A stretch of DNA of 64,000 nucleotides, from sequence record MN850566.1; one strand, 5' to 3'. This document shows positions 31,066 to 42,323 of the stretch, piece after piece (position 1 is the first letter of the stretch; each line of letters starts with the position of its first letter). Source of the stretch: Escherichia phage garuso. The notes under the pieces are model-generated. The model was given only the letters and a program-made list of their open reading frames with translations. It was not told the DNA's origin and did no database searches. Position numbers and translations under genes: made by a program.

Positions 31066-31336
31066 AGAGAAGTGGGAGATTTTACCATTAGTCAGTGAAG
31101 GCGGTAATGGTTGTGAAATGTACATGATACGTGGTCATGTTCCAGAACCAATTGCACTTGAGATGGTAAACAACTTTACAGATGGCTCTTACAAAGACTT
31201 AGGGGAGCCAAATATAAAGCAGCAATGGGTAAAGCCTGTACCAGACAGCACAGGTAACTGTAGTGTACTTTATCACGTTGTAGACCCTGCAAAATGCAAA
31301 TCTGCAATGGCAGTAACAAACGTAACTTTTGATTGA
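31058..31336 (+). CDS. hypothetical protein
   Basis: 92 aa ORF. Confidence 0.4.
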   Translation: MAKEKWEILPLVSEGGNGCEMYMIRGHVPEPIALEMVNNFTDGSYKDLGEPNIKQQWVKPVPDSTGNCSVLYHVVDPAKCKSAMAVTNVTFD

Positions 31337-31347
31337 GAGAGAAAACT

Positions 31348-32229
31348 ATGAAAACTGTTATTGAAGCCGTCGTCACCGCACAAGAGAAATTCTTCCACAC
31401 AGAAAAATTTAATATCATTCAATTCCCATCTGGAGAAATTGGTGGAAACTTCTCTGAAGATTTTGTTAAGTTTACTGAGCGTAATGCTGGTAAGATTGAT
31501 AATGTTATAATTACTGTACAGGGATATGACAAAGATACACTGTTTGCATTAGCTTTGGCTAAGGATGCCGTTGACAGTCTTGTTCCCCAGAAATCAGCGA
31601 TGAAAACCGTTGTTTTCGGGTTCTTACCAAATGCTCGATATGACCGCCACATGTTCAAAGGTGATGCAGCAGCACTGAAAGTCTTTGCCAACCTAGTTAA
31701 TGCAATGGGTTTTGATGCAGTATGTGCTCTTGACCCTCACAGTAATGTTGCAGAAAACTTATTTAAGTGCTTTCAAAGCATGAAGCAAAAAGATGTGGCA
31801 GTACACTTTGCAAGTGACCCACGCATTGATTTCTTGGTAGCCCCAGATGCAGGTGCAGCTAAGAAGACTGAAGATACCGCTAAAGAGGTGGATAAACCGT
31901 ATATCACAATGTCTAAGGTGCGCAATCTTAAGACTGGTGAAATTACTGGTATGCGAATCCTTGATGATGTTGATTTGACAGATAAAACTGTCATGATTCT
32001 GGATGATATTTGTGATGGAGGCCGAACCTTCGTAGAGGCAGCTAAACACCTACGTGAAGCAGGTGCAAAACGTGTGGAACTCTATGTAACTCATGGTATT
32101 TTCTCTAAAGGTGTTGAAAACTTACTTGACAACGGTATTGACCATATCTACACTACAAACACTTTAGGTGAAGCTAAAGACCGTGGCTTAACACATTACG
32201 CCCAAGTTACTGTAGCAACCATTGATTGA
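31348..32229 (+). CDS. ribose-phosphate pyrophosphokinase-like protein (PRTase fold)
   Basis: PRPP-binding-type motif ILDDICDGGRT; start at ATG 31348 with SD; adjacent to NAMPT. Confidence 0.6.
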   Translation: MKTVIEAVVTAQEKFFHTEKFNIIQFPSGEIGGNFSEDFVKFTERNAGKIDNVIITVQGYDKDTLFALALAKDAVDSLVPQKSAMKTVVFGFLPNARYDRHMFKGDAAALKVFANLVNAMGFDAVCALDPHSNVAENLFKCFQSMKQKDVAVHFASDPRIDFLVAPDAGAAKKTEDTAKEVDKPYITMSKVRNLKTGEITGMRILDDVDLTDKTVMILDDICDGGRTFVEAAKHLREAGAKRVELYVTHGIFSKGVENLLDNGIDHIYTTNTLGEAKDRGLTHYAQVTVATID

Positions 32230-32274
32230 AACTTTATAGGGGCTTGAAAGCCCCACTTTGAGAGAGATTAAAAG

Positions 32275-34056
32275 ATGACTAAATCACTTTACGCAGTACC
32301 AGCAGGTCTTAATGCAGATGCTTACAAGGCATCACATATATATCAGTATCCAGATGCTACGCAATATCTTATGTTGAACCTGACACCACGTAGTGATAAA
32401 TGGTTTAACAGCCCTTTGGCAATTGACGGTGTAGTGGCTTTTGGTATTCAACGTTTCGTTAAAGATTACTTGATAGACCACTGGAACGCCACTTTCTTTG
32501 AACGTGATAAAAAAGAAGCCATTGATGAAATCTTAGAAATCATGAATGGTGTTCTGGGTAAAGATGCTATCGGTCGAGAGCACTGGGAAGCACTTCACGA
32601 CTTAGGTTATCTACCAGTTGAAGTATACGCTGTAGAAGAAGGTACAGTTGTCCCTATGCGCGTCCCAATGATTGTCTTCCAGAACACTGTTTCAGGCTTC
32701 CATTGGGTAGCGGGGTATCTGGAAGATGCTTTCTCTGCTGAGATTTGGAAGGCTTGTACCATTGCAACTATTGCATTGCACTACAAACGTATCTGTAAGA
32801 AGTGGGCTGACCTTACTTGTGACAACGACTTGCATTTGCCTTATCAGTGCCATGACTTTGCTATGCGTGGTATGTCCGGCTTTACTGATGACGCATTTAA
32901 CGCTGTAGGCCACTTAACCAGCTTTAAAGGAACTGATAGCTTCCCTGCTGTGTATACGGCTAAACGAATCTATGGACAGTCCTACCCAATCTCTGATATT
33001 GGTAGCTCTGTACCAGCCACTGAGCACTCTGTAATGTGTGCAAACATTGCTTGGGAAGGTGGTAATGAGTTGATTGAAGAAGAAAGACGCTTTAAAGGTG
33101 AGTTACAAACCTTCCGTCGTTTCTTAACAGAAACTTACCCAACTGGTATTGCAAGTGTTGTTTCAGACACTTATAACTTCTGGAGAACTGTGTCAGAAAT
33201 TTTACCAGCACTTCGTAAAGAAATTATGGAACGTGATGGCAAACTGGTAATTCGTCCTGACTCTGGAGACCCTGTACATATTGTCACAGGTTATAAAGCA
33301 ATCCACTTAGAATGTGCTAAAAAGGCTTATTACGAGCACCTAAGCAAGCTGGAAGCCAGTGACACAATGTTGAATGCTGTTCTGAACATGAAGCTTGAAA
33401 ATATCAACTATGGTATTGCTGGATGGCTACTGTCAGAAGGCTACGAAATGGTTGTTGACAGAGAAGACTTTGAAGTTGCTGATACAGTGATGTTGAAAAA
33501 TGCTTATATGGTTGGTTCTGCAAACGTTGTAACACGTCCTGTAGCTGAGATTGATGGAGCTATTAAGACACTGTACAACATTTTTGGGGGAACTATTAAC
33601 TCTAAAGGGTTTAAGGTACTGGATGAGCATATCGGACTTATCTATGGTGACTCTATCACGCTGGAACGTGCAAACGAAATCCTGAAGCGTCTGTATGAAA
33701 TGGGGTTTGCAAGCTCTAACGTGGTGTTTGGTGTAGGCTCTTACACTTACCAGTACATGACTCGTGACACCTTTGCATTTGCTGTCAAAGCAACTCTTGC
33801 AAGCATTGGTGGCAAAGAGATTATGCTTGCAAAAGACCCTAAAACAGATAGTGGTGTTAAGAAATCTGCCTTTGGTGGTGTAGCGCCTATGTGGGATGGT
33901 GATAAGTTGAAAGCTGTAGATGGCTATGGAATACAGAGTTTTGCAGATGCACTTGAACACCCAGCTTGTGCTTTACGTTTAGTCTTTAGCGACTCTGAGC
34001 AGTTCGGTTATACAACTCTTGGTGATATTCGAAATAATATTGACAAGCAGCTTTAA
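32275..34056 (+). CDS. nicotinamide phosphoribosyltransferase (NAMPT/NadV-like)
   Basis: 593 aa; size and neighbourhood with PRPP-synthetase-like gene as in phage NAD salvage modules. Confidence 0.65.
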   Translation: MTKSLYAVPAGLNADAYKASHIYQYPDATQYLMLNLTPRSDKWFNSPLAIDGVVAFGIQRFVKDYLIDHWNATFFERDKKEAIDEILEIMNGVLGKDAIGREHWEALHDLGYLPVEVYAVEEGTVVPMRVPMIVFQNTVSGFHWVAGYLEDAFSAEIWKACTIATIALHYKRICKKWADLTCDNDLHLPYQCHDFAMRGMSGFTDDAFNAVGHLTSFKGTDSFPAVYTAKRIYGQSYPISDIGSSVPATEHSVMCANIAWEGGNELIEEERRFKGELQTFRRFLTETYPTGIASVVSDTYNFWRTVSEILPALRKEIMERDGKLVIRPDSGDPVHIVTGYKAIHLECAKKAYYEHLSKLEASDTMLNAVLNMKLENINYGIAGWLLSEGYEMVVDREDFEVADTVMLKNAYMVGSANVVTRPVAEIDGAIKTLYNIFGGTINSKGFKVLDEHIGLIYGDSITLERANEILKRLYEMGFASSNVVFGVGSYTYQYMTRDTFAFAVKATLASIGGKEIMLAKDPKTDSGVKKSAFGGVAPMWDGDKLKAVDGYGIQSFADALEHPACALRLVFSDSEQFGYTTLGDIRNNIDKQL

Positions 34057-34061
34057 AAGTA

Positions 34062-34083
34062 TATGATAAGAGGCTCCTACGGG
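34062..34083 (+). terminator. rho-independent terminator
   Basis: GGCTCC-TAC-GGGAGCC followed by TTTTT. Confidence 0.6.
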
Positions 34084-34109
34084 AGCCTTTTTAATTTCTG
34101 GAGAAAACT

Positions 34110-34445
34110 ATGAAAATCAAAGAGATGAACATCAACATTGTCTTAGAAGAACGTTGGGAGAACATTAAGAAACCTGAAGATGGTAAAAAGTTCCTTAACA
34201 AAATTTTAGTAGCAGCTAAAGAAGAACTGACTGGCAAGATTGCAGCAGCAATCACAATAAAAATCTGTGTAAAAGGTCTTCCACAACATCACCAATTTGC
34301 ACTTGACGAGTTTAAAGAAAGCTTCTACAATCCAAACAAACAGATGCTTGAAAGTAACTTTGCAGTGTCTACAAGTATCGTCCATGACAGAAGCTTTATC
34401 CTTTACAAGAATATGAGAGGTGAGTCATGCAAGCATATTGGATAG
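34110..34445 (+). CDS. hypothetical protein
   Basis: 111 aa ORF. Confidence 0.45.
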   Translation: MKIKEMNINIVLEERWENIKKPEDGKKFLNKILVAAKEELTGKIAAAITIKICVKGLPQHHQFALDEFKESFYNPNKQMLESNFAVSTSIVHDRSFILYKNMRGESCKHIG

Positions 34446-34604
34446 AAATTTTACTGTCACTTGGTAGTGTAGCAGTATTTGTTTACCTTCTTTGCAAGTA
34501 CTATGCAGAGCACAAGAAGTGTGATTACTGCAACGGGGAAGGGTACACAAGAGCAGGTTGTTGCCCTATTTGTGGTGGTTCTGGTAAAATGTTTAATAAG
34601 TAAT
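34428..34604 (+). CDS. hypothetical small membrane zinc-ribbon protein
   Basis: 58-codon ORF not in track (below cutoff): hydrophobic N-terminus then CDYCNG...CPICGG. Confidence 0.3.
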
Positions 34605-34631
34605 TTAACAGTAAACTAAGAGGAAAGTATT

Positions 34632-36998
34632 ATGCGCATGGTAAACGACCACGCAGAAGTGATTAAGAGTTCAACTTCTTTGGAGACATCTCAAGCACAG
34701 ATTACAATGACACCTGAAATGTTCAGCCTTTTGAGTTCAGGTGTATACACATTCAAAGAAAGGGCAGTGATTCGTGAACTGTCATGTAACGCAGTAGATG
34801 CTCAAAAAGAAGCTGGAAAAGAGAACATCCCATTCCATGTGCATTTACCTACTCGATTTGAGCCTTACTTTGAAGTCCGTGACTTTGGAACTGGTTTAAC
34901 CCATGACAAAGTAATGAGTTTGTATCTGAACTATGGGGCTTCTACGAAGAATGACTCCAATGATTACATTGGTGCAATGGGTATCGGCTCAAAATCCCCA
35001 TTTGCAATTGCTCAGTCATTCACAGTATCTAGCTATGTTGATGGTGTTGTTAATAAGTACTCTGTTTACCTTGAGAATGGTATCCCTCAAGTAACTAAGC
35101 TTACTACCAACCCAACAAATGAACCCAATGGTTTAGCTGTACGTGTGGCAGTTGCTGACCATCGTATTTCAAAGTTCTTTGAAGAGGCTGGTCACGTATA
35201 CTCATACTTTGCTGTAAAACCAGAAAGTAACATTGTGTATGATGATGTATTAGCAGATATGAATGTCATTGCCCGTGAAGAGGGTGTTTATGATGCTATG
35301 ATTCATAAGCAAAGCTGGCGTTCTAGTGGCAACAGGACAGAGTTTAATGTGGTGATGGGTAATATTGCCTACCCAGTGAACATGGAAGCATTACTTGGTG
35401 ATGATTTCTTCAAAGTCTTGCCAGAGTTTTTCCGTAGGAGCGTAGACCTTGTAAACATCTACATGCCTATTGGTTCAGTGGCTATTGCAGCTTCTCGTGA
35501 AGCATTGCAGATGAATGACACGACAAAAAATGTTATCATTGAGGCTACTAAAAAGATAACTGAAGCCATTACAAAGGATGTTATCAAGAAAGTTAACAAC
35601 CAACCTACACTCATGGATGCTGCACAGGCTTATGCTGAGTTACGTTTGAACTCACGAGAGATGTTTAATGCTGTGTGTCCAAAGCTAGAGTGGGGAGGCA
35701 TTAAGCTTGATTCTCTGGAAGAAGAATTACTAAACATTCGTCGTGGGATTATCTACGCAGAAGACGGCTCAGTCATTTATGAACGTGACGGTAAAGGTAA
35801 TATCAAGGTTGATAGGAACGGGAACAATATCCCTAAAGTGGATTATCTTTATAATCCAGTTGCTTATGTCAAGTTCAACTCTTTAGAGAGTAAGATTCGT
35901 GCAGCAGCACTTTCCTACACTCAAGAGGCAAGTATGTTCAATATCTTTGGTGCAATGCGTAAAAGCCAAATTGAACAGTTTTTGTTCGTGATTAATGACC
36001 GTCGTAATAAAAATGGCACTGAGAAGACTGTAGGCCGCAATCAGATTCTGCGTGGTGCATGTCGAGACTACGCTAGCGAGTCAAGCCTGTTCCACAGATA
36101 CAATGGTATTGTGTTTGTATTCTCGACTGAAAAAGAGTTAGATGATTTAATCAATCTACACAAGCTTGATAAAAGTTTGTTAAAGATTGTGAAGATGTCT
36201 GATAAGGAACACCATTATCAGCGTAAAGAAGCTGTGAGGGGTGTTGTAAAACTCTGGAAAGCTGTTCCATCAGAAACTAAAGCTTCATACACAGAGGTGT
36301 CAGAAGACCTAGATACAATTGAAGAACCCCAGCTTTATATCAAGGCAGTAGGCGACACAGTTGATGGTGAATGTTTTTGCTCATCCCCAGAAGATGTAGC
36401 TAAAACAATTGCTAATGTTATAGGAAAAACAGTCTATGTTTTCCGAAAAGCAAATTGGAAAAAGATACCAGAAGACTGGATTGAAGTAGATGAGAAGCTA
36501 TTGAATGACAGCTTAACTGATGTTCACTGGATTAATCATAACAGGTATATGACACGTATCTATATGAATGGTGTCCTTGACCTTACAAGTAGTTGGATTA
36601 TTGCCAGAAACTTTACGTTTAATAACAAGAAGATTTCTCGCGGGTATTGCTATTCACGAGATACAAACAAAACCATCTTCTTAGAAGGTAATGAGAATGC
36701 TGTTGAGGCAATGTTTGGTAAGATTCAGTATGTGGCTGCACCGTTTGCATACACTTACACTATCAGTGTTCTTCAGGATTTGAAGTCATGCCTTGACAAT
36801 GATACAAAACTGTACAAAAAGATTAAGAAAGCGGGTGACCGCATGGTTATCAAACTGACAAACTATCTTTCAAAAAGAAAACAAGAAAACTTCTTGCTTT
36901 CTCATTTAGATTGGAATAAAGTGTCACCCATCGAAGTGAGTAAGTTCTTAGGTTTTGATGTGAAGTGTGTTCCAGAAGGAACTACAATTTACGATTAA
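34632..36998 (+). CDS. GHKL-type (Hsp90/MutL-like) ATPase-domain protein
   Basis: N-terminal Bergerat-fold motifs RELSCNAVDA, DFGTGLT, GAMGIGSKSPF; 788 aa; remainder unassigned. Confidence 0.55.
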   Translation: MRMVNDHAEVIKSSTSLETSQAQITMTPEMFSLLSSGVYTFKERAVIRELSCNAVDAQKEAGKENIPFHVHLPTRFEPYFEVRDFGTGLTHDKVMSLYLNYGASTKNDSNDYIGAMGIGSKSPFAIAQSFTVSSYVDGVVNKYSVYLENGIPQVTKLTTNPTNEPNGLAVRVAVADHRISKFFEEAGHVYSYFAVKPESNIVYDDVLADMNVIAREEGVYDAMIHKQSWRSSGNRTEFNVVMGNIAYPVNMEALLGDDFFKVLPEFFRRSVDLVNIYMPIGSVAIAASREALQMNDTTKNVIIEATKKITEAITKDVIKKVNNQPTLMDAAQAYAELRLNSREMFNAVCPKLEWGGIKLDSLEEELLNIRRGIIYAEDGSVIYERDGKGNIKVDRNGNNIPKVDYLYNPVAYVKFNSLESKIRAAALSYTQEASMFNIFGAMRKSQIEQFLFVINDRRNKNGTEKTVGRNQILRGACRDYASESSLFHRYNGIVFVFSTEKELDDLINLHKLDKSLLKIVKMSDKEHHYQRKEAVRGVVKLWKAVPSETKASYTEVSEDLDTIEEPQLYIKAVGDTVDGECFCSSPEDVAKTIANVIGKTVYVFRKANWKKIPEDWIEVDEKLLNDSLTDVHWINHNRYMTRIYMNGVLDLTSSWIIARNFTFNNKKISRGYCYSRDTNKTIFLEGNENAVEAMFGKIQYVAAPFAYTYTISVLQDLKSCLDNDTKLYKKIKKAGDRMVIKLTNYLSKRKQENFLLSHLDWNKVSPIEVSKFLGFDVKCVPEGTTIYD

Positions 36999-37077
36999 AG
37001 TGTTTGACAAGGGGCTTCGAAGCCCCTTAGAATAGCCTTACAAAATGATTTATTAACTAACAAGAGAGAGTAATAAG

Positions 37078-38187
37078 ATGACTACTAAAACTAAAGCACA
37101 GATTGACGCAGAAATTTACGAACTGGTTAAAGAAGGTAAGCTGACTAAAACAGCTATTGCACAGAAGTTCAATACTTCAACCCGTTCAGTTGGTCGTGCT
37201 GTAGAGCGTCATGAAGCAACCTTAAAAGGTAAGAAAAAGGTAGCTTCTAAACCAGCTACGAAGACTTTGAAGCAAGTTGCTAAATCAGTTAAAAAGAAAG
37301 CTGACAAACCAGTTGAAAAGGTTGTTAAAGAGCCTGTACAGAAAGCTCCGGTAAATAAACTGCATGAAGCTATGCAGAATGGCAACCAGATTGAGTACAT
37401 GATTACTGGCGACTCTGTTATCATGACTTTCGGTGCAGATTCTGAAATCGTTGAATCTACCCATCCGAACTACAAAGAAATCGTGATGGCTGTTGTATCC
37501 GGTGAGTATAAGAAAGCTTTCGAACTGATGAACATTCGTAAGTCTATCGAAAACTTCACTCAGGGTGCTATCACCATCAAAGGTGACAAGTTATTCTACG
37601 GTGCTGTTGAGATGCGTTCTACTCTGGTTGACCGTATTCTTCACATGATGAAGACTGGAGATAAGGGTTTTGAACGCCTTGTGATGTTCTTCGAAAAACT
37701 GATGGAAAACCCATCTAAAGACTCTGTAGAACAACTTTGGGGATTCGTATCTCACCTTGATGTTGAAATTGATGAAGAAGGCTACATCATTGGTTGGAAG
37801 AAAGTCTCTACTCATGAAGGCAAGCTGGTTGACTCCCACACCTACAGAGTACCTAATGATTTGGGTAACATTGTAGAAATGCCACGTTGGATGGTTGATA
37901 ATAACCGTAACGTGACTTGCTCTCAGGGTCTTCACGTTGGTGCTTGGGATTATGTTCGTTGCTTCTCAGGTGATACAATCCTGAAGGTTCGTGTCCATCC
38001 ACGAGATGTTGTATCTGTTCCAACTGATTACAACGATATGAAGATGCGTTCGTCTCGTTATGAAGTTGCAGCAATCGTTGATAATCAACGTAAAGTGCTG
38101 AAAGAATGGGATGGCAAGACTGAAGCTTTGCATGTCATCGTTGGCACTGCTGGTGAACTAATCTCCCAACGTAAACGTGAAATCTAA
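37078..38187 (+). CDS. hypothetical protein with N-terminal HTH-like segment
   Basis: 369 aa; N-terminal LTKTAIAQKFNTSTRSVGRAVERH then Lys-rich linker. Confidence 0.45.
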   Translation: MTTKTKAQIDAEIYELVKEGKLTKTAIAQKFNTSTRSVGRAVERHEATLKGKKKVASKPATKTLKQVAKSVKKKADKPVEKVVKEPVQKAPVNKLHEAMQNGNQIEYMITGDSVIMTFGADSEIVESTHPNYKEIVMAVVSGEYKKAFELMNIRKSIENFTQGAITIKGDKLFYGAVEMRSTLVDRILHMMKTGDKGFERLVMFFEKLMENPSKDSVEQLWGFVSHLDVEIDEEGYIIGWKKVSTHEGKLVDSHTYRVPNDLGNIVEMPRWMVDNNRNVTCSQGLHVGAWDYVRCFSGDTILKVRVHPRDVVSVPTDYNDMKMRSSRYEVAAIVDNQRKVLKEWDGKTEALHVIVGTAGELISQRKREI

Positions 38188-38203
38188 TAAGTAATTTCTT
38201 AAA

Positions 38204-38228
38204 AGGCTGCTTCGGCGGCCTTTTTTAT
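38204..38228 (+). terminator. rho-independent terminator
   Basis: GGCTGC-TTCG-GCGGCC followed by TTTTTT. Confidence 0.55.
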
Positions 38229-38287
38229 TTGTATTTTGTGCAGAGTGCTGTATAATTGTTGTCACGATAAACTAAACAGGAGAACCA

Positions 38288-38836
38288 ATGAAGAAATTGA
38301 TTCTAGGTTTGTGCTTAATGTTTACAGCACACTTATCTTATGCAGTTGACTGCCCAGAGCTATCAATTAGCCAAAAAGTAAACATGTTAAAAGCTTACCA
38401 GTATGGTGAGAATAACATGGGTAAAGGTTGGGGTATCACTCTAGCTGCTATAGCCTTACAAGAGTCAGAGTTAGGTCTGAAGGTAGAGAATAAAAAGACA
38501 CATGATTATGGTATCTTCCAGAATCACTTGAAGACTGTTGTAAAGCGTAACAAAATTAGTCCTAATGTGGCTAAAAAGAAACTCTTAAAAGACTTTGACT
38601 ATGCTGCGAAGGAAACTCACAAAGAGCTTGAGTTTTGGACAAAGGTGCATGGTCAGCCAAAGTCAAAGAAGACTTTACAAAAAGTTTTAGCATCATATAA
38701 TGCTGGGTATTCGTACAAAATCCCTAAAGCTAAGAAATATTCTCAAGATGTCTATAACAACATGAAAGTCATTGCTCAATGTGAATTTGCAATAAACATT
38801 TCTAAGGTAAACCATGAAAAAATTAAAAAAGTCTGA
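38288..38836 (+). CDS. putative secreted lytic transglycosylase (SLT-like)
   Basis: Signal peptide MKKLILGLCLMFTAHLSYA; SLT-like motifs ALQESELG, YGIFQ, YNAGYSY. Confidence 0.5.
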   Translation: MKKLILGLCLMFTAHLSYAVDCPELSISQKVNMLKAYQYGENNMGKGWGITLAAIALQESELGLKVENKKTHDYGIFQNHLKTVVKRNKISPNVAKKKLLKDFDYAAKETHKELEFWTKVHGQPKSKKTLQKVLASYNAGYSYKIPKAKKYSQDVYNNMKVIAQCEFAINISKVNHEKIKKV

Positions 38837-41537: not shown

Positions 41538-42323
41538 ATGGGTATTGTAAAAATCATCAATGGTGATATCTTTGCTGCATTTGATAAAGGTAAGTTTGAC
41601 ATCATTGGTCATGGTTGTAACTGTATGAACCTAATGGGTGCAGGTATCGCTGATAAGATTTCTAAACTTTACCCAAAAGCATATGAGACCGATACAGAAG
41701 TTTATCTATATGCAGGCGGTATAGGCCACAAACCCTGTGAAAATTTACTAGGTAACTTCTCTGTAGCACGTTTAAAACAAGGCCGTATAGCTAACCTTTA
41801 CACTCAGCTTAAGACTGGTAAAGATGCCCGATACAGTGCTTTAGAGTCATCTTTGAAACAGCTTAACAGATACTGTGAAGTCAATCAGTTGAAGAAAGTC
41901 GGGTTACCTATGATTGGTGCAGGTATCGGTGGGCTAGACGCTCAAGCCGTCACAGTTATCATTAATCAGGTGATGAAGAGTGTAGATGTGTATCTGTATG
42001 TCTATGAAGGAGAGATGTACCACAAGTTACGCTCAGGTTGGAAGAACTACTGTGAACCAGAATACTTTGCAGGTGTAGTAACGTTCACAGACAATACAGT
42101 TACCCTCTTCAGACGAAGAAAAGGTAAGATACATCAAAGTAACCCTCCGGTTGAAAAGATGTCTCTAAGTAACGCTCTAGTTACCCACCTGTCGAAGAGC
42201 AATCACAGGATTGCAGTAACATTTGGTAGTGATGCAGACACTTATATCTATGCAAGAACTGATGAGGGTATCGAGACAGTTTTCTCTTCGCCAGAAGTTA
42301 CCTTCTTAGACGCAAAGAACTAA
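41538..42323 (+). CDS. macro-domain protein (putative ADP-ribose binding/hydrolase)
   Basis: N-terminal IVKIINGDIFAAFDKGKFDIIGHGCNCMNLMGAGIADKI and PMIGAGIGGLD fit macro-domain glycine-rich motifs. Confidence 0.55.
   Translation: MGIVKIINGDIFAAFDKGKFDIIGHGCNCMNLMGAGIADKISKLYPKAYETDTEVYLYAGGIGHKPCENLLGNFSVARLKQGRIANLYTQLKTGKDARYSALESSLKQLNRYCEVNQLKKVGLPMIGAGIGGLDAQAVTVIINQVMKSVDVYLYVYEGEMYHKLRSGWKNYCEPEYFAGVVTFTDNTVTLFRRRKGKIHQSNPPVEKMSLSNALVTHLSKSNHRIAVTFGSDADTYIYARTDEGIETVFSSPEVTFLDAKN

Follow-up and report, generated by a model that had tools for sequence, protein, structure and literature searches.

A Felix O1-like rIIA-rIIB gene pair of Escherichia phage garuso as a probable accessory counter-defence module

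Results

Positions 34632-38187 of the 64,000-nucleotide (nt) stretch of Escherichia phage garuso DNA analysed here (MN850566.1; the window) very probably carry the Felix O1-like (Felixounavirus) rIIA-rIIB module, an orthologue of T4 rII that would work as an accessory counter-defence pair by the mechanism proposed below. rIIA and rIIB form the textbook T4 gene pair; few phage genes have been known for as long, and they provide escape from suicide-type bacterial defences. In garuso both lie on the plus strand, with rIIA (34632-36998; 788 amino acids (aa), 89.5 kDa) immediately upstream of rIIB (37078-38187; 369 aa, 41.8 kDa, pI 9.2). The intergenic spacer is 80 nt long and each gene is preceded by a good Shine-Dalgarno sequence. 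The original prediction, which was made from the sequence alone, had singled out the same two open reading frames (ORFs) as a GHKL/Hsp90-like ATPase followed by a helix-turn-helix (HTH) protein, the two forming a pair without a known role, non-standard for phages and perhaps directed against host defence. The ORF listing confirms both reading frames and the motifs quoted for them.

At the level of sequence, the family identity of the two proteins is established. The 788-aa protein has a full-length match in the PHROGs database to phrog_612, 'RIIA lysis inhibitor' (E 4.9e-189), residues 1-770 aligning with positions 1-716 of the 725 in the profile. For the 369-aa protein the match is to phrog_609, 'RIIB lysis inhibitor' (E 3e-88). 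BLASTP against the T4 proteins aligned residues 24-317 of garuso rIIA with T4 rIIA (32 % identity over 306 aa, E 2e-37) and residues 11-339 of garuso rIIB with T4 rIIB (35 %, E 5e-61), the N-terminal HTH segment lying within the latter alignment. PHROGs was decisive, since Pfam by itself would leave both proteins without assignment: it gave a sub-threshold HATPase_c match alone for rIIA (E 0.13), and for rIIB HTH_Tnp_ISL3 (E 8e-4), which is also below the cut-off. The Pfam set searched did not contain PF26926, a family that a precomputed table reports on nearly all the rIIB homologues listed.

The window is Felixounavirus DNA, and over the interval 34000-38400 it shares 99.2 % nucleotide identity with Escherichia phage warpig (MN850637). 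Each of 209 phage records covers at least 80 % of this interval, and the pair is labelled rIIA and rIIB in warpig and in most annotated records among the matches listed. In tblastn searches of 50,697 phage records, rIIA homologues were found in 2925 and rIIB homologues in 2907. These nearly equal numbers indicate that rIIA and rIIB are no oddity; they commonly occur together as accessory genes of large virulent phages. The original prediction holds in part. Its sequence features and its guess of an anti-defence role stand, but the picture of an unassigned, non-standard pair does not, since rIIA and rIIB carry these names in warpig and in hundreds of Felix O1-like genomes and are common (about 2,900 of the 50,697 records). 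A profile match to a well-characterised family whose known partner is encoded nearby, the outcome that it had itself named as contrary to its reading, is exactly what RIIA and RIIB provide. The garuso pair is in this sense already known: it is annotated within the genus, and near-identical orthologues from phage Bas63 (Escherichia phage JohannRWettstein, MZ501086) have been tested experimentally.

The conditional counter-defence phenotype of rII comes from published genetics on such orthologues. Garuso rIIA is 98 % identical to Bas63 gp84, and rIIB is 88 % identical to gp85. Deletion of either gene from Bas63 lowers the plating efficiency on a QatABCD host by 10^4-10^5-fold, and complementation largely restores it (10.1101/2024.10.10.617714). 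Knock-down of rIIA or rIIB by CRISPRi-ART in T4, MM02, EdH4, SUSP1 and N4 is without effect on naive hosts but sensitises the phages to lambda RexAB (PMC11879866); likewise, in HIDEN-SEQ, depletion of transposon insertions in T4 rIIA/B is seen only in the presence of RexAB (10.1101/2025.11.20.689424). The anti-defence guess thus finds support in Bas63 rII against QatABCD and in T4, SUSP1 and N4 rII against RexAB. Hosts also turn RIIB into a signal: it triggers a Lysobacter CARD-gasdermin system, even when expressed alone (10.1101/2023.05.28.542683), and by itself triggers the Tmn NTPase by direct binding, as seen by co-immunoprecipitation (PMC13001434). By analogy with these phages, the garuso pair would in all likelihood be dispensable on naive hosts and needed on hosts equipped with RexAB or QatABCD-type abortive infection.

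Architecture of rIIA

Sequence and structure modelling indicate that rIIA has an intact ATP-binding site and a clamp-type architecture. Three parts can be delineated on the plus strand: a Bergerat (GHKL) ATP-binding domain with N, G1 and G2 boxes (about aa 25-200; 34704-35231), a second, transducer-like domain (about aa 201-320; 35232-35591), and a variable C-terminal region (about aa 321-788; 35592-36998) that is confidently modelled and poorly conserved. Conservation was read from an alignment of 51 sequences that share 21-68 % identity with the query. In the N box E49, N53 and D56 are invariant; in the G1 box D84 and G86 are invariant and G88 is found in 48 of the 51 sequences; in the G2 box, or ATP lid, G114, G117, G119 and K121 are invariant and make up the motif G114-x2-G117-x-G119-S-K121. 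A second invariant cluster (G243, Y247, G281, R289 and E290) falls in the transducer-like domain, and I infer that R289 is the counterpart of the transducer Arg/Lys that contacts the gamma-phosphate in GHL enzymes. Past about residue 320 conservation collapses, in line with the 'highly variable C-terminal domain' ascribed to rIIA in PMC7824862.

When PDB sequences were searched with rIIA as a single sequence, nothing was retrieved; only the rIIA family profile reached the N-domains of TRAP1/Hsp90 (E 7.8e-6), in an alignment that displays the Hsp90-like signature 'E-T...LYS-K...IRELxxNxxDA' in rIIA. The NCBIfam model 'HSP90 family protein' scores 42.5 bits, over the N-domain only, far under its cut-off of 455. 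After the ATPase module, searches for a TOPRIM domain, a MutL C-terminal endonuclease or dimerisation domain and a MORC CW or coiled-coil domain found none, and residues 321-788 have no solved-structure relative. A profile match to Hsp90 N-domains together with a sub-cut-off score points to a GHL-type dimerising clamp-like ATPase that stands outside the Hsp90, topoisomerase, MutL and MORC families; membership of any of these was rejected on account of the missing C-terminal domains and of scores far below the cut-offs. Domain searches and the structure model thus bear out the earlier description of a GHKL/Hsp90-like ATPase devoid of MutL or topoisomerase C-terminal domains. The accompanying statement that the protein is much shorter than Hsp90 was judged wrong.

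Architecture of rIIB and its mosaic C-terminus

The anatomy of rIIB was taken from an AlphaFold2 (AF2) model with a mean predicted local distance difference test score (pLDDT) of 85. An N-terminal HTH domain of three helices (aa 6-51; 37093-37230, plus strand; pLDDT about 95) is followed by a disordered Lys-rich linker (about aa 52-93; 37231-37356; pLDDT below 50 over residues 54-92), with 15 Lys among the 44 residues 50-93, so that the HTH and Lys-rich linker noticed earlier are both recovered. Across homologues and lineages this linker ranges from 0 to about 220 residues and varies in charge as well. The remainder is the conserved core (37357-38184), in which a middle domain of mixed alpha/beta structure (aa 94-225) precedes a beta-rich domain at the C-terminus (about aa 226-369; residues 235-366 in the model) with the invariant motif C281-x2-G284-x-H286. 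All the residues that are invariant among 51 homologues (F204, G235, K241, V273, C281, G284, H286 and P308) belong to this core. Neither of its two domains has a solved-structure relative, and a single-sequence search of PDB sequences with rIIB gave one non-significant match, to E2F4 (E 0.56). An ADP-ribosyltransferase (ART) fold was considered for the C-terminal domain and rejected, as no significant ART similarity, in structure or in profile, and no H-Y-E or R-S-E catalytic triad was found.

Judging from the identity bands of the homologue searches, rIIB varies far more within the genus than rIIA does, and this variability fits rIIB as a target of host immune sensors. Relative to Bas63 the divergence is concentrated in residues 241-369 (37798-38187), where the proportion of synonymous differences (pS) is 0.5-0.6 and that of non-synonymous differences (pN) 0.18-0.24; elsewhere in rIIB, as well as across rIIA and the genes next to the pair, pS stays at or below 0.2 and pN at or below 0.014. 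Over residues 241-369 the garuso protein is about 84 % identical to the Suspvirus SUSP1 allele versus about 70 % to Bas63, whereas residues 1-240 are about 99 % Bas63-like. Because pS is high too, positive selection was set aside as the source of this divergence, and the segment reads mainly as a recombinant patch relative to Bas63.

The phrog_609 profile, which is 1055 positions long, matches garuso proteins in two places: the rIIA N-terminus at positions 31-299 and rIIB at positions 755-1048. This two-part match suggests that natural rIIA-rIIB fusion proteins occur in some phages; if true, such fusions would support a physical complex by the Rosetta-stone argument.

Transcription unit and genomic neighbourhood

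rIIA and rIIB share with two smaller ORFs a unit that lies between two strong intrinsic terminators, all promoter and terminator sites in the region being consensus matches only. The distal terminator (38201-38224, plus strand) lies 13 nt past the rIIB stop codon and ends the unit. The proximal one (34068-34091, plus strand) is a strong hairpin that closes the transcription unit of the upstream nicotinamide phosphoribosyltransferase (NAMPT) gene. It directly follows a near-consensus sigma70-like promoter (34040-34067, plus strand; TTGACA-N16-TATGAT, 11 of 12 matches), an unusual arrangement in which transcripts initiated at the promoter would start within the stem. A second sigma70-like site occupies the rIIA-rIIB spacer (37004-37033, plus strand; TTGACA-N18-TAGAAT, 11 of 12 matches) and may be a separate rIIB promoter; a perfect GGGGCTTCGAAGCCCC hairpin sits inside its 18-nt spacer, again an unusual arrangement.

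The first ORF of the unit (34110-34445, plus strand) encodes a 111-aa protein of phrog_4262, to which no function is assigned; it is annotated as hypothetical in warpig and Bas63 and is probably co-transcribed with rIIA. Its end is overlapped by a 58-aa ORF (34427-34603, plus strand; phrog_3931, E 1.8e-33) with a good Shine-Dalgarno sequence, which encodes a transmembrane (TM) helix (KD19 2.11) followed by two DnaJ-type CxxCxGxG zinc-finger motifs. This ORF corresponds to bas63_0083, 'putative membrane protein', and lacks annotation in the 99 %-identical warpig record. This membrane zinc-finger peptide, probably co-transcribed with the rII pair, might be functionally linked to it. The idea that the small ORF upstream of rIIA is a counterpart of T4 rIIA.1 was rejected, as no similarity was found.

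Directly upstream of the unit, a ribose-phosphate pyrophosphokinase (Prs, 298 aa) and NAMPT (593 aa) are encoded at 31333-34056 (plus strand) and form an NAD+ salvage pair; their Bas63 orthologues, g79 and g80, reportedly counter the NAD-depleting Sir2-HerA system (10.1101/2024.10.10.617714). Downstream of rIIB come a secreted SLT-like protein, a polynucleotide kinase, spanins and a Macro-domain protein. With Prs/NAMPT on one side and further candidates on the other, the rII pair is placed among counter-defence candidates in an accessory region. The SLT-like protein is a 182-aa ORF (38288-38836, plus strand) immediately past the rIIB terminator, with a promoter-like TATAAT element of its own, a hydrophobic, signal-like stretch at the N-terminus and a weak match to SLT transglycosylase (Pfam E 0.0012, below cut-off); it is 'putative lysin' in warpig and belongs to phrog_600, of unknown function. 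The 261-aa protein encoded at 41538-42323 (plus strand) has an N-terminal Macro domain (PF01661, E 1.5e-7, above cut-off); it is labelled 'putative phosphatase' in warpig and Bas63 and could be an ADP-ribose-processing counter-defence enzyme. Further along the window, 59843-63383 (plus strand) holds 18 tRNA genes, among them two each for tRNA-Met, tRNA-Lys and tRNA-Leu; such clusters are typical of Felix O1-like phages.

Discussion

A mechanism can be proposed in which rIIA, through its Bergerat ATPase and transducer domains, would form a dimerising clamp, driven by ATP and of the Gyrase/Hsp90/MutL/MORC type. Its variable C-terminal region would give partner or target specificity together with rIIB. 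The latter would contribute the HTH, a flexible basic tether and the conserved core domain. The two proteins would act jointly and peripherally, reportedly at the inner membrane or the phage replication complex, and either stop the host sensor of systems such as RexAB and QatABCD from being triggered or block the membrane-level effector. Hosts would have evolved RIIB-detecting sensors such as CARD-gasdermin and Tmn because rIIB is conserved.

Several points weigh against this reading. The genetics stem from orthologues and not from garuso itself; ATP hydrolysis, dimerisation and the rIIA-rIIB complex are inferred from the fold and from genetics; and the mechanism proposed for QatABCD in the PhageMaP preprint (10.1101/2024.10.10.617714) is speculative. 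In addition, no TM helix is predicted in rIIA or rIIB (maximum KD19 1.29 and 0.78, respectively), so that any membrane association would have to be peripheral.

Three other explanations were weighed. The one that survives best, although it is unlikely, holds that rIIA and rIIB are structural accessories of a membrane-attached replisome and that abortive infection fires in rII mutants by way of a mis-assembled replication complex. The view of rII as a replisome-membrane anchor goes back to older work, as cited in PMC13001434, and an HTH combined with a basic tether and a GHL-type clamp does make a plausible DNA-handling architecture. The absence of TM segments fits an anchor poorly, however, and rII is dispensable in T4, MM02, EdH4, SUSP1, N4 and Bas63 as long as no defence system is present. 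In the window the pair adjoins other counter-defence genes, preceded by Prs and NAMPT and followed by polynucleotide kinase, and these separate it from the nearest nucleotide-metabolism gene, which encodes an organic-radical-activating enzyme.

It is still less probable that rIIB serves chiefly as a transcription factor that represses phage gene expression through its HTH, with rIIA as an ATP-dependent modulator and counter-defence as an indirect effect of the changed expression. The confidently modelled HTH most resembles DNA-binding domains of the sigma region 4, DeoR and LuxR types, DNA contacts by the basic linker are possible, and rIIB is classed as a specific transcription factor in PMC7824862. 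Yet for many rIIB homologues the alignment is confined to the C-terminal 55-65 % or so of the query, the invariant columns all fall within aa 204-308 and none in the HTH, and no rIIB operator or regulon is on record. The ability of RIIB alone to set off Tmn, by direct binding, and CARD-gasdermin suggests a role at the protein level. The last alternative makes rIIA a phage-borne chaperone of Hsp90 type, a topoisomerase or a MutL-like DNA enzyme, with rIIB as its co-factor; as to family membership it is effectively refuted by the low Hsp90 score, by the lack of Hsp90 C-terminal dimerisation, TOPRIM and MutL C-terminal endonuclease domains, and by a C-terminal region devoid of solved relatives.

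The counter-defence reading is thus retained. The molecular mechanism of rII is a long-standing general question to which the garuso locus adds nothing new; neither the rIIB core and rIIA C-terminal region without solved relatives nor the mosaic rIIB C-terminal domain shows a new system. The rIIA and rIIB models are useful as starting points for the mechanism, in that they offer an intact GHL-type clamp ATPase and a candidate transducer residue, R289.

Among known systems, the closest is Bas63, which belongs to the same genus and whose gp84 and gp85 (bas63_0084 and bas63_0085) have the same lengths as the garuso proteins. Synteny is also the same (Prs, NAMPT, small ORFs, rIIA, rIIB, orf182, polynucleotide kinase, spanins), and the two phages differ in rIIB residues 241-369, the segment of only about 70 % identity. 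SUSP1, of the same subfamily (Ounavirinae), has the same rIIA-then-rIIB order, as in Bas63, and its rII proteins are 63 % (rIIA) and 82 % (rIIB) identical to those of garuso. T4 is more distant, being a member of the Tevenvirinae with a 169-kb genome, compared with about 87 kb for garuso. Its rIIA (725 aa) is homologous to the N-terminal 310 aa or so of garuso rIIA, and its rIIB (312 aa) to nearly full-length garuso rIIB; gene order and orientation are conserved, the T4 pair spanning the ends of the linear record, and T4 genetics assigns to rII the same counter-defence against abortive infection as is proposed for garuso. By contrast, the C-terminal halves of rIIA do not align, and the T4 rIIB linker is short and non-basic where that of garuso is Lys-rich. 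According to the PhageMaP preprint, the sequence homology of Bas63 g84/g85 to T4 RIIA/B is '>80 %' (10.1101/2024.10.10.617714). This conflicts with the direct BLASTP comparison, in which garuso proteins 98 % and 88 % identical to those of Bas63 reach only 32 % (N-terminal 306 aa) and 35 %.

With the GHL clamp ATPases (Hsp90/TRAP1, MORC, Topo VI-B, GyrB and MutL), rIIA shares the Bergerat fold, all the motifs and then a transducer-type second domain. It is set apart from them by family scores far below the cut-offs and by the absence of their C-terminal functional domains; its own C-terminal region is phage-specific, and rIIB is its obligate partner.

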